From a virus (Duplodnaviria; Heunggongvirae; Uroviricota; Caudoviricetes), in IMG/VR virus record IMGVR_UViG_3300028453_000018, positions 1 through 14,007 of that record: a DNA stretch of 14,007 bases. One strand, written 5' to 3'. The stretch's first letter is position 1, and every line of letters begins with the position of its first letter. Shown in pieces: positions 1-14,007 of the stretch. The position numbers and the translations under genes were made by a program. The notes beneath the pieces were generated by a model, which worked only from the letters and a program-made list of their open reading frames with translations, was not told the DNA's origin and did not search any database.

Positions 1-357
1 AATGATACGGCGACGCAGCCGCGTTTAAAGCAGGTTGCGCTGTCGGCAATTTCGGAGGTCAACGCAGAGCTGTATGAGTTTCGCAGACGCCAGCAGATGC
101 TGGGATATGCCTCGCTGGCTGAGGTTCCGGCGGAGCAGCTGGACGGCAAAAGTGAGCGCATTCAGCACTATTTCAACGCGGTTTACTGCTGGGCACGCGC
201 CATGCTCAACGAACGATACCAGGACTATGACGCCACGGCATCCGGTGTGAAGCGGGGCGAAGAACTGGCAGAAGCCAGCGGTGATTTGTGGCGTGACGCC
301 CGCTGGGCCATCAGCCGGGTGCAGGATGCGCCGCACTGCACAGTGGAGCTTATCTGA
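1..357 (+). CDS. L: Capsid completion/head stabilisation protein (P2 gpL-like), 3' portion only; the 5' end lies upstream of the window
   Basis: Frame 1 is open from nt 1 to the TGA at 355-357 (the ORF track lists only the part from the first ATG at 97). The stop overlaps the ATG of the next gene (TGATG), and the position immediately upstream of gene X matches P2 synteny. Product assignment is by position and recollection of gpL-like sequence, not by search. Confidence 0.6.
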   Translation, partial: NDTATQPRLKQVALSAISEVNAELYEFRRRQQMLGYASLAEVPAEQLDGKSERIQHYFNAVYCWARAMLNERYQDYDATASGVKRGEELAEASGDLWRDARWAISRVQDAPHCTVELI

Positions 358-9537: not shown

Positions 9538-9840
9538 ATGAGCGATAAGCAGACTGAAAAGACCATTCAACTGGATACCCCCATCATGCGCGGTAAAACA
9601 GAAATTACCGAAATTGTGTTGCGTAAACCGCAGTCCGGTGCGCTGCGTGGCACACGCCTGCAGGCCATTATGGATATGGATGTGAACGCGATGATGACTG
9701 TGATCCCCCGCATCTCCAGTCCGGCACTGACTGCACAGGAAATCGCAGAGATGGACCCGGCAGATCTCACTGCCATGTCGGTTGAGGTTGTCACTTTTTT
9801 GTTGAAGAAGTCGGTGCTTGCCGGTTTACCGACAGCCTGA
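9538..9840 (+). CDS. E: Tail assembly chaperone E
   Basis: 100-aa ORF between the tube and tape measure genes; it contains the slippery T6G heptamer at 9795-9801 near its 3' end. Confidence 0.85.
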   Translation: MSDKQTEKTIQLDTPIMRGKTEITEIVLRKPQSGALRGTRLQAIMDMDVNAMMTVIPRISSPALTAQEIAEMDPADLTAMSVEVVTFLLKKSVLAGLPTA

Positions 9841-9974
9841 CGGTTGACGATCTGGTGGCAGATATCGCCACCATTTTTCACTGGCCGCCATCCGTTACTG
9901 ACGTTATGCCGCTGACCGAAGTGCTGGAATGGCGGTATAAAGCGATTCAGAGAAGCGGGGCCAACGATGAGTGA
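9538..9974 (+). CDS. E': Tail assembly chaperone E' (E+E' fusion made by a programmed -1 ribosomal frameshift at 9795-9801)
   Basis: The slippery sequence T TTT TTG lies in the E zero frame at 9795-9801. The -1 frame is open from 9801 for 57 codons (VEEVGACRFTDSLTVDDLVADIATIFHWPPSVTDVMPLTEVLEWRYKAIQRSGANDE) and ends at TGA 9972-9974, overlapping the T start codon at 9967. The predicted product is about 145 aa (P2 E+E' is about 142 aa). Confidence 0.7.
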
Positions 9975-12726
9975 TAACAACCTGCGGCTGCAGGTCATTC
10001 TTAATGCGGTTGACAAACTCACCCGCCCATTCCGTGCTGCACAGGCCAGTTCGAAAGAGCTGGCTGGCGCAATCAGAAACTCCCGTGACGCATTAAAGCA
10101 ACTCAATCAGGCGGGTAACAGCCTGGAAAAATTTCGCAAGCTGCAGGCCGATAACAAGAAGTTAGGCGACAGGCTGAACTATGCCAGACAGAAGGCTAAT
10201 TTGCTTAGCTCTGAGCTGGAGGCGATGGAACAACCATCACAACGGCACCTTGTGGCTTTAGGTCGGCAAACGCTGGCAGTCCAACGCCTGGAAGAACAAC
10301 AAAAATATTTGCAGAAGCAAACGGCGCTTGTGCGTGCAGAACTGTACCGGGCGGGAATTTCTGCGAAAGATGATGCGGGAGCAACTGCCCGTTTAGCCCG
10401 TGAAACATCACGTTATAACCAGGAATTGTCGAAACAGGAGGCGCGGCTGAAGCGACTGGGTGAAGCTCAGCGCAGGATGAATGCGGCGCGTGCCAGTTAT
10501 GCCCGTTCGCTGGAGGTGCGCGATCGTATTGCAGGTGCCGGAGCCACTACCACGGCTGCAGGTCTGGCAATGGGGACGCCAGTGATGGCGGCAGTAAAAA
10601 GCTATACCAGCATGGAAGATGCCATGAAAGGTGTGGCAAAGCAGGTCAATGGTCTGCGTGACGATAATGGCAACCGCACTGCACGTTTTTATGAAATGCA
10701 GGATGCCATCAAGGCTGCCAGCGAACAGTTGCCGATGGAAAAAGGTGCGGTGGACTTCGCTGCACTGGTTGAAGGTGGTGCGCGCATGAACGTCGCAAAC
10801 CCTGACGACAGCTGGGAAGACCAGAAACGTGATCTGCTGGCCTTCGCCAGCACGGCGGCAAAGGCGGCAACAGCCTTTGAGCTGCCAGCGGATGAACTGT
10901 CAGAAAGTCTGGGAAAAATCGCCCAGCTCTACAAAATCCCTACCCGCAATATTGAACAGCTCGGTGATGCGCTGAACTATCTGGATGATAACGCCATGTC
11001 GAAAGGGGCAGACATCATTGATGTGATGCAACGCCTGGGCGGTGTGGCTGATCGTCTGGATTATCGTAAAGCGGCGGCGCTGGGTTCCACCTTCCTGACA
11101 CTGGGTGCTGCGCCGGAGGTTGCAGCCAGTGCAGCAAACGCGATGGTGCGTGAGTTGTCCATTGCCACCATGCAAAGCAAGAGTTTCTTTGAAGGGATGA
11201 ATCTGCTGAAACTCAATCCTGAAGTGATTGAAAAGCAGATGACGAAGGATGCGATGGGAACCATCCAGCGCGTGCTGGAGAAGGTGAACGCACTGCCGCA
11301 GGACAAGCGTCTGTCTGCCATGACCATGTTGTTTGGTAAAGAGTTTGGTGATGACGCGGCGAAACTGGCAAACAACCTGCCGGAACTGCAGCGCCAGCTA
11401 AAACTGACAGCGGGCAATGATGCGCTCGGTTCCATGCAGAAAGAATCCGACATCAACAAAGACTCACTTTCTGCTCAGTGGTTGCTGGTCAAAACCGGAG
11501 CGCAGAACACCTTCAGCAGCCTGGGTGAAACGCTGCGCCAGCCGCTGATGGATATTCTGTACACGGTGAAAAGCATCACGGGAGCGTTGCGCCGCTGGAT
11601 GGAAGCTAACCCGGAACTGACAGGCACACTGATGAAAGTAGCGGCTGTTGTGGCTGCGGTTACCGTAGGCCTCGGCACCTTAGCGGTGGCGCTGGCTGCA
11701 GTGCTGGGGCCGCTGGCAGTCATCCGTCTGGGATTCTCTGTGCTGGGTATCAAAACGTTACCTTCCGTTACGGCAGCAGTAACACGAACCAGCAGCGCGT
11801 TGTCCTGGTTAGCTGGCGCTCCACTGGCACTGCTGCGACGCGGGCTTGCTTCATCGGGCAACGCAGCGGGTTTACTTACTGCGCCGTTGTCGTCTTTGCG
11901 CCGCACGGCATCACTGACGGGGAATGTCCTGAAAACTGTAGCAGGTGTGCCGGTTGCACTGTTGCGGTCTGGATTATCCGGTTTACGTGCTGTTGCTGTG
12001 ATGTTTATGAATCCTCTGGCGGTACTGCGCGGTGGACTGTCTGCCGCAGGCGCGGTGCTGCGAGTACTGGCATCCGGTCCGCTGGCGATGCTGCGCGTTG
12101 CCCTGTATGCCATATCTGGTCTGTTAGGTGCTCTGCTCAGTCCGATAGGTCTTGTGGTTACTGCACTGGCGGGTGTGGCGCTGGTTGTCTGGAAATACTG
12201 GCAACCCATCACCGCATTTCTCGGTGGCGTGGTGGAAGGATTCAAAGCGTCGACAGGTCCCATCAGTGCTGCATTCGAACCACTTAAGCCTGTGTTTCAG
12301 TGGATTGGCGACAAAGTGCAGGCGTTGTGGGGTTGGTTTACTGATCTGCTGACGCCTGTTAAGTCGACCTCTGCTGAACTGCAGAGCGCAGCGGCAATGG
12401 GGCGACGATTCGGGGAGGCTCTGGCGGAGGGGCTGAATATGGTCATGCATCCGCTGGACTCCCTGAAATCCGGTGTTTCCTGGTTGCTGGATAAACTCGG
12501 CATTGTCAGTAAAGAAGCTGCAAAGGCGAAACTGCCGGAAAGCGTGACGCGTCAGCAACCTGCGACGGTGAATGCAGACGGTAAAGTGATGATGCCATCG
12601 GGTGGTTTTCCATCATGGGGATATGGCTTTGCGGGGATGTATGACAGCGGCGGCTATATCCCGCGCGGGCAGTTTGGCATCGTCGGTGAAAACGGGCCGG
12701 AAATTGTTAACGGCCGGCAAATGTGA
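9967..12726 (+). CDS. T: Tail tape measure protein T, N-terminal 919 codons, ending at an apparently premature in-frame TGA
   Basis: Long ORF with an alpha-helical, Q/A/R/E-rich N-terminal half and a hydrophobic repeat region (PLALLRRGL, PVALLRSGL, PLAVLRGGL, PLAMLRVAL), sitting between E' and U as in P2. The frame stops at 12724-12726, but the coding signal continues in the -1 frame. Confidence 0.85.
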   Translation: MSDNNLRLQVILNAVDKLTRPFRAAQASSKELAGAIRNSRDALKQLNQAGNSLEKFRKLQADNKKLGDRLNYARQKANLLSSELEAMEQPSQRHLVALGRQTLAVQRLEEQQKYLQKQTALVRAELYRAGISAKDDAGATARLARETSRYNQELSKQEARLKRLGEAQRRMNAARASYARSLEVRDRIAGAGATTTAAGLAMGTPVMAAVKSYTSMEDAMKGVAKQVNGLRDDNGNRTARFYEMQDAIKAASEQLPMEKGAVDFAALVEGGARMNVANPDDSWEDQKRDLLAFASTAAKAATAFELPADELSESLGKIAQLYKIPTRNIEQLGDALNYLDDNAMSKGADIIDVMQRLGGVADRLDYRKAAALGSTFLTLGAAPEVAASAANAMVRELSIATMQSKSFFEGMNLLKLNPEVIEKQMTKDAMGTIQRVLEKVNALPQDKRLSAMTMLFGKEFGDDAAKLANNLPELQRQLKLTAGNDALGSMQKESDINKDSLSAQWLLVKTGAQNTFSSLGETLRQPLMDILYTVKSITGALRRWMEANPELTGTLMKVAAVVAAVTVGLGTLAVALAAVLGPLAVIRLGFSVLGIKTLPSVTAAVTRTSSALSWLAGAPLALLRRGLASSGNAAGLLTAPLSSLRRTASLTGNVLKTVAGVPVALLRSGLSGLRAVAVMFMNPLAVLRGGLSAAGAVLRVLASGPLAMLRVALYAISGLLGALLSPIGLVVTALAGVALVVWKYWQPITAFLGGVVEGFKASTGPISAAFEPLKPVFQWIGDKVQALWGWFTDLLTPVKSTSAELQSAAAMGRRFGEALAEGLNMVMHPLDSLKSGVSWLLDKLGIVSKEAAKAKLPESVTRQQPATVNADGKVMMPSGGFPSWGYGFAGMYDSGGYIPRGQFGIVGENGPEIVNGRQM

Positions 12727-13043
12727 CCAGCCGGAGAAATACAGCTGCACTGGCTGCCGTTGTTGCCGGAATGATGGGCGTTGCTGCCGCGCCAGCAGAG
12801 CTTCCACCGTTGCACCCTTTGGCACTTCCCGCGAAAGGTGGAGAAGCGATGGTGAGTCGCGCAGCCACTGTGCCGCTCGTTCAACGGATTGAGGCACCGA
12901 CGCAGATCATCATTCAGACGCAGCCAGGACAAAGTGCGCAGGATATTGCGCGGGAGGTGGCACGCCAGCTTGATGAACGTGAACGCAGGCTGAAGGCAAA
13001 AGCCAGGAGTAACTACAGCGATCAGGGGGGATACGACGCATGA
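12711..13043 (+). CDS. T: Probable C-terminal segment of tape measure protein T in the -1 frame (frameshifted or pseudogenised 3' end)
   Basis: This frame is open from 12711, just after a TAA at 12708-12710, to TGA 13041-13043, and its stop overlaps the U start codon (ATGA at 13040-13043) in the way P2 junctions do. The T frame and this frame overlap only across 12711-12723. Confidence 0.6.
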   Translation, partial: RPANVTSRRNTAALAAVVAGMMGVAAAPAELPPLHPLALPAKGGEAMVSRAATVPLVQRIEAPTQIIIQTQPGQSAQDIAREVARQLDERERRLKAKARSNYSDQGGYDA

Positions 13044-13525: not shown

Positions 13526-14007
13526 ATTTCAGCTCTGAACTGCTTAACAAAGGCAACAAAACTCCCGCATTCAGCATCAGTATTGAGGGCAGGGATATCA
13601 CCACTGTGCTGGATAACCGCCTGATGAGTTTGACGCTGACGGATAACCGGGGCTTTGAAGCGGACCAGCTTGATCTGGAGTTGGATGACGCTGACGGAAA
13701 AATCGTGCTGCCGCGCCGTGGTGCGGTCATTACGCTGGCGCTGGGCTGGAAGGGGCAGCCGCTTTTCCCGAAAGGGGCATTCACAGTGGACGAGATTGAA
13801 CACACTGGCGCACCGGACCGCCTGACTATCCGGGCGCGAAGTGCTGATTTTCGGGAAACGCTGAATACCCGCCGTGAAAAATCGTGGCATAAGACCACCG
13901 TCGGGGAAGTGGTGAAGGAAATAGCCGCGCGGCACAAGCTGAAGATGGCACTGGGAAAAGACCTGCCGTCACTCTCATTAGTCTGGTGTATATGCTCCAC
14001 GGGCTTA
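13522..14007 (+). CDS. D: Tail protein D (late control gene D family), 5' portion only; continues beyond the window
   Basis: GTG at 13522 overlaps the U stop (GTGA). The frame is open to the window end (VNFSSELLNKGNKTPAFSISIEGRDITTVLDNRLMSLTLTDNRGFEADQLDLELDDADGK...), the position after U matches P2, and the N-terminal motif resembles the Phage_GPD family. Confidence 0.75.
   Translation, partial: MNFSSELLNKGNKTPAFSISIEGRDITTVLDNRLMSLTLTDNRGFEADQLDLELDDADGKIVLPRRGAVITLALGWKGQPLFPKGAFTVDEIEHTGAPDRLTIRARSADFRETLNTRREKSWHKTTVGEVVKEIAARHKLKMALGKDLPSLSLVWCICSTGL

Follow-up and report, generated by a model that had tools for sequence, protein, structure and literature searches.

The tape measure gene T of the prophage described here is spread over two reading frames, which raises the question of whether it was disabled by a genuine mutation, was misread during sequencing or assembly, or still yields a functional product through frameshifting or from two separate polypeptides. 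The window, that is, the whole 14,007-nt stretch of DNA that was analysed, covers the late genes, for lysis and tail, of a P2-like (Peduoviridae) prophage in the order gpL (partial), X, holin, lysozyme, LysA/B, R, S, V, W, J, I, H, G, FI, FII, E/E', T, U and D (partial). The prophage is integrated next to ssrA/smpB in E. coli, and its right host flank comprises ssrA, smpB, ratA, rnfH, bamE, recN, nadK and grpE. The window corresponds to a whole contig with artefactual ends. Positions 1–14 are a 14-nt prefix of the Illumina P5 adapter, while the 3' end is a fold-back. There, the final 39 nt correspond, with one mismatch, to the reverse complement of what truly lies downstream, and the window departs from the true sequence from position 13966 onward. 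Despite these bad ends, comparison of the deposited sequences indicates that the interior is reproducible across assemblies.

The features around the break are collected in Table 1. The first-pass annotation had placed the end of the T frame at TGA 12724–12726, as was confirmed by the ORF list and translation, and had described an open −1 frame behind it that overlaps the start of U, as was also found on translation. The 919-aa product ends in ...GIVGENGPEIVNGRQM followed by the stop codon, and consists of 916 native residues plus RQM. The −1 frame is closed by TAA at 12708–12710 and then remains open from 12711 to TGA 13041–13043, a stop that overlaps the U start codon (ATG at 13040) as ATGA (13040–13043). 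From 9967 to 13043, the span measures 3077 nt, compared with 3078 nt for the T genes of Escherichia phages 500465-1 and Cartapus and Klebsiella phage 4LV2017.

Table 1. Features at and around the break in T (window coordinates).
Feature	Position	Strand	Basis or detail
Tail chaperone genes E and E+E'	9538..9974	+	−1 slippery heptamer T TTT TTG at 9795–9801; sequence and heptamer scan
Truncated tape measure gene T, 919 aa, premature TGA from frameshift	9967..12726	+	ORF list, translation
Orphaned 3' end of T in the −1 frame; last 106 codons start at GTG 12723	12711..13043	+	Translation, tblastn
1-nt deletion site, CC versus CCC (or TCC) in all intact relatives	12714..12715	+	Alignment
Internal ATG ORF, 64 aa, GGAG 5 nt upstream; holds the predicted C-terminal helix (about 12936–13022)	12849..13043	+	Gene callers, AlphaFold2
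gpU (tube initiator), intact, 161 aa	13040..13525	+	PF06995 on the identical gene in contig L125

Insertion of one C restored a 1025-aa protein continuing ...EIVNGPANVTSRRNTAAL..., as in the homologues. The repaired T matched TIGR01760 with an E-value of 3.7e-92 (309 bits, cut-off 28.8) and PF10145 with an E-value of 1.7e-18, the latter domain being recorded for the 919-aa product as well. In addition, T lies between the E/E+E' chaperone genes and gpU/gpD, in the same order as in 500465-1, Cartapus, P2 and contig L125, and the position of gpU matches that in 500465-1 and Cartapus. In the PDB, the search by sequence yielded no more than a marginal match, to 8kea_G (a phage 'tmp' chain, E = 0.043), in the central hydrophobic region and not at the C-terminus. 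Scans for promoters and terminators near the break gave no relevant hit.

The closest deposited phages, with 95–98% nucleotide identity, are 500465-1, Cartapus and 4LV2017. They have the order FI-FII-E-E'-T-U-D in common with the window, and in each of them T is a single 3078-nt gene of 1025 aa (YP_009949239.1, YP_010664000.1 and YP_009789858.1, respectively) with the same overlap with gpU. Once one C is added, T of the window has the same length and C-terminus as these proteins; as it stands, it differs from them in having one C fewer, 919 aa and its last 106 codons out of frame. The truncated product is collinear with residues 1–916 of the 500465-1 protein at 96% identity. Alignment of the junction, in which the relatives read AACGGCCCGGCAAAT and the window AACGGCCGGCAAAT (in gapped form AACGG-CCGGCAAAT), revealed a 1-nt gap in the window with respect to four phages and a near-identical sister prophage. 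At this point, the homologues have GGCCCGG or GGTCCGG (the latter in Cartapus), whereas the window has GGCCGG. The first-pass annotation had predicted a single-nucleotide break about 105 codons before the end of the gene, to be joined within 12711–12723 by a change such as GGCC to GGCCC, and the alignment agrees with it, with 106 codons lost and the missing base at 12714–12715.

The suggestion that T really ends in the −1 frame was borne out by tblastn with the 106-aa product of that frame, which matched 54 phage records. Among the 40 matches listed, every annotated record had the match at the 3' end of the gene preceding gpU, i.e., the tape measure gene, which points to homology and not chance similarity. 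Residues 46–106 of the fragment are the part conserved with Fels-2-type phages and, among the matches listed, Fels-2, SopEPhi, SEN8 and RE2010 showed 65–87% identity over the last 38–63 aa. Homologues that end at the position corresponding to 12726, followed by a separate conserved gene, were also looked for and were not found; T is a single frame in the homologues. T of the window does not extend as an uninterrupted ORF, with the conserved C-terminal helix, to the gpU overlap. Intact single-ORF orthologues differ from it by an indel whose length is not divisible by three, and the lesion is reproduced in independent sequence data (four assemblies), as is expected of a pseudogene. T is thus a member of the gpT family by descent and a pseudogene as it stands.

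The origin of the missing base was then traced in public assemblies. The exact 919-aa protein was found on seven contigs (JGI/IMG, ENA and Logan) and, at the DNA level, the deletion allele was present in four assemblies: the ENA metagenome assembly ERZ27247011 (62-kb contig), Logan SRR7736617 (35-kb contig), Logan SRR23440604 and the NCBI isolate assembly GCA_028611705.1 (contig ABKPLY010000023.1). In the last of these, the record lists no T protein between E' and U, which would fit annotation as a pseudogene. Over up to 17 kb, host flank included, the four assemblies agree with one another at 100% identity, so that they may represent one clone or, conceivably, one strain sequenced repeatedly. 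The allele was found through exact-protein look-up only; exact-pattern scans for it gave no hit in GTDB representative genomes, IMG/VR or JGI metagenome contigs.

The most serious rival reading is a sequencing or assembly artefact, in which the genome itself would read CCC and a C would have dropped out of a short homopolymer. The bad contig ends described above would be in line with it. So would a sister contig with 8x coverage (ERZ24930562): it has a CCC-to-CC loss of its own, located in gpO, where the surroundings (G-CCC-G) are similar, and this might point to an error specific to such contexts. However, the allele occurs in at least five assemblies with different accessions and several record-naming styles, an isolate genome among them. 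It also co-segregates with a haplotype defined by three substitutions: the sister prophage on ERZ24930562, at the same chromosomal site, differs from the window by these three substitutions across the window span, and it retains CCC and a 1025-aa T. The identical 35-nt context, moreover, is read as CCC elsewhere. Of the 1015 complete E. coli genomes with this locus, none matched the deleted allele at 100%, and the best of them aligned at 101 of 102 positions with one gap, their context being read as CCC. In IMG/VR, the intact 35-mer had exact matches in at least 120 contigs and the deleted 34-mer in none. Finally, the T deletion is the only indel across 11.9 kb aligned to 500465-1, and this is therefore not a noisy assembly. 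Since the context is normally sequenced correctly and the deletion is tied to one haplotype, the assemblies led to the conclusion that the deletion is apparently a genuine, recent and vertically inherited mutation of one E. coli clone, and an artefact was considered unlikely. A single-base frame break can thus be real even in a contig with visibly bad ends.

Could the broken gene act as two polypeptides? Translation might reinitiate at GTG 12723, which overlaps the stop codon as GTGA (12723–12726), or start at ATG 12849, which is preceded by the Shine–Dalgarno-like GGAG, and the C-terminal fragment would then complement the 919-aa part. Gene callers do predict the 64-aa ORF, and report it on ENA and Logan contigs that have a broken or truncated T. 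Judging from these start sites, some C-terminal fragment could be translated separately. Nevertheless, GTG 12723 has no Shine–Dalgarno sequence before it, and the split is absent from natural homologues and goes back to one very recent deletion. A tape measure must, in addition, connect the baseplate with the distal end of the tube in a single chain. A two-polypeptide T is accordingly highly unlikely, and it is scarcely to be expected that the broken gene still gives a working tape measure, whether by reinitiation at GTGA or through the 64-aa helix fragment acting in trans with the 919-aa fragment. If it did, it would be a naturally split tape measure.

A programmed −1 ribosomal frameshift within 12711–12723, joining the frames into a full-length T, was also evaluated. 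The two frames do stand in a −1 relation, and a real −1 frameshift site is found 2.9 kb upstream, in E/E+E'; tail chaperone frameshifts (P2 E/E+E', lambda G/GT) likewise use two overlapping −1 frames in the tail operon, that of E+E' being recorded in the P2 annotation. Whereas the E/E' site has the conserved heptamer, no X XXY YYZ heptamer was found in the T frame between 12600 and 12730 by a scan that recovered the E/E+E' heptamer as an internal positive control. The 100 nt downstream of the break folded no better than shuffled sequences (MFE of −31.2 kcal/mol versus a shuffle mean of −34.1, z = +0.85). The two-frame arrangement is not conserved either, as T is a single frame in every relative examined, including the one three substitutions away; since almost identical relatives are single-frame, a recoding signal has had neither the time nor the selection to evolve. 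With no slippery heptamer, no unusually stable downstream fold and single-frame homologues, recoding was ruled out as a candidate, being improbable in the extreme. Among the three origins named in the first-pass annotation, the genuine inactivating deletion was therefore the one upheld, by its presence in several assemblies on one haplotype, while the assembly indel and the recoding event were not.

The preferred explanation, a genuine inherited deletion in T that has left a tail-defective prophage in early decay, is regarded as likely with good confidence, its loss-of-function part being inferred from the loss of the conserved C-terminal helix and from the comparison with P2 given below. In this explanation, T carries a vertically inherited 1-nt deletion, from CCC to CC, and translation stops at 919 residues, short of the 1025 of the intact protein. 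This strands the final 106 codons in the −1 frame, the conserved C-terminal helix among them, and the truncated T would be unable to anchor in the baseplate or to support polymerisation of tube and sheath. The prophage would thereby be tail-defective and in the early phase of its decay.

Single-sequence AlphaFold2 modelling of the 106-aa fragment predicted a helix at residues 72–100, with a pLDDT of about 80–85. As for the effect of losing such a segment, internal in-frame deletions in lambda gpH, studied by Katsura and Hendrix, reportedly shorten the tail, while the ends of the protein are needed for assembly. In the P2 structure, the tape measure docks on the baseplate spike with its C-terminal helices. 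P2 gpT (NP_046782.1, 815 aa) has the same position in its FETUD tail operon as T of the window, and the two are homologous at the N-terminus (28%, 175 aa) and in the region 586–736 (44%, 153 aa). Both have a charged, helical C-terminal end, but P2 gpT is 210 aa shorter and its gene is intact. BLASTP of the C-terminal 79 aa of P2 gpT against the orphaned fragment gave no alignment, and the putative spike-docking role is carried over from P2 only by position and helical character. Since the lost segment holds the conserved C-terminal helix, and the corresponding region of P2 gpT docks on the spike, the prophage is probably tail-defective. Loss of this helix would probably result in failed tail assembly and not in a proportionally shorter tail.

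Further lesions were found in related prophages. The host flank of WL297 is 100% identical to the right flank of the allele-bearing prophage, and WL297 carries the same prophage, 99.96% identical over the ATPase–portal stretch of the early DNA, from which essentially all morphogenetic genes of the late region have been lost through two deletions. In SRR18481690, a deletion from FI to T has left just the final 64 codons of T, in the KP12 record 4 nt are deleted from T, and the low-coverage sister contig ERZ24930562 has, as noted above, its own lesion in the scaffold gene O. The lineage is decaying, as the loss of the late region in WL297 shows, and the T frameshift fits this ongoing process. 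Decaying (cryptic or defective) prophages likewise carry recent inactivating lesions in otherwise intact structural modules; the window shows no material difference from them and represents an early-stage example with one visible lesion.

The T frameshift is ordinary prophage decay, a known kind of event, and the allele was already present in public assemblies. Its importance beyond correct annotation is small. T should be annotated as a frameshifted pseudogene and the prophage as predicted to be tail-defective. At the ssrA site, decay can be followed stepwise, from a relative with intact T, through the 1-nt frameshift, to the loss of the whole late region, and in this E. coli clone the prophage would not be expected to count as an inducible, transmissible phage.

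Both contig ends of the window (1-14 and 13966-14007) are artefacts. Bases 1-14 (AATGATACGGCGAC) are identical to nt 1-14 of the Illumina P5 adapter. The 3' end is a fold-back: divergence from the true sequence begins at 13966, and the final 39 nt (13969-14007), when reverse-complemented, match window-equivalent 13971-14009 of the true sequence with one mismatch. End effects probably also account for the mismatches at positions 11 and 13956.

Two further features of the window and its prophage lineage were located (table). The product of the additional ORF in L134, an isolate assembly with the deleted allele of the tape measure gene T, and in L137 shows 32% identity to residues 142-368 of the adjoining large terminase (Pfam Terminase_6N), and the related prophages L135, L136 and L138 lack the ORF. 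In the tail chaperone pair, E' ends at about 9974, overlapping the start of T.

Additional features of the window and its prophage lineage
Feature	Location	Position	Context
Additional 235-aa ORF	Between portal Q and terminase P	L134 2972-3679 (GCA_028611705.1); also L137	Window's prophage lineage
Canonical -1 slippery heptamer, T TTT TTG	E/E+E' tail chaperone pair	Window 9795-9801	In E frame

Relative to 500465-1, a close phage with an intact T, a 4-nt deletion in this gene was observed at about 1349 in L003, the deposited record of Klebsiella phage KP12 clone KP12_3 (OM835953.1); because of this deletion, the annotation of T consists of two CDSs, each named 'putative tail protein'. The lesion is a tape-measure frameshift independent of that in the window. 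The sequence is P2-like, and the record is filed under a Vequintavirinae phage. An assembly with the label E. coli DH5alpha, NZ_CP026085.1, was also seen to carry the window's P2-like tape measure gene (3108325-3108426). Such a gene is unexpected in a K-12 derivative; the record may carry a wrong label, or the strain may have been lysogenised.

In the sister prophage contig at the same chromosomal site, L141 (ENA ERZ24930562, NODE_362, 8x coverage), T is intact, and a 1-nt loss at about 2243 (TTTGCCCGCG to TTTGCCGCG) breaks the scaffold gene O into two parts of 214 aa and 77 aa. As at the T lesion of the window, CCC has become CC flanked by G's. The loss in gene O may be either a genuine second step of decay or an assembly error caused by low coverage.

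Larger losses were observed in two relatives. In the P2-like prophage remnant L130 (Logan SRR18481690), FI, FII, E and nearly all of T are deleted, T being reduced to its last 64 codons ahead of U, D and ogr. E. coli WL297 (NZ_CP128613.1, 1155929-1168342) carries the window's prophage at the same ssrA site, with 99.96% identity over the ATPase-portal stretch and 100% over the host flank. Two deletions, from the portal N-terminus to M and from mid-L to ogr, have left a remnant in which only the early genes are kept.
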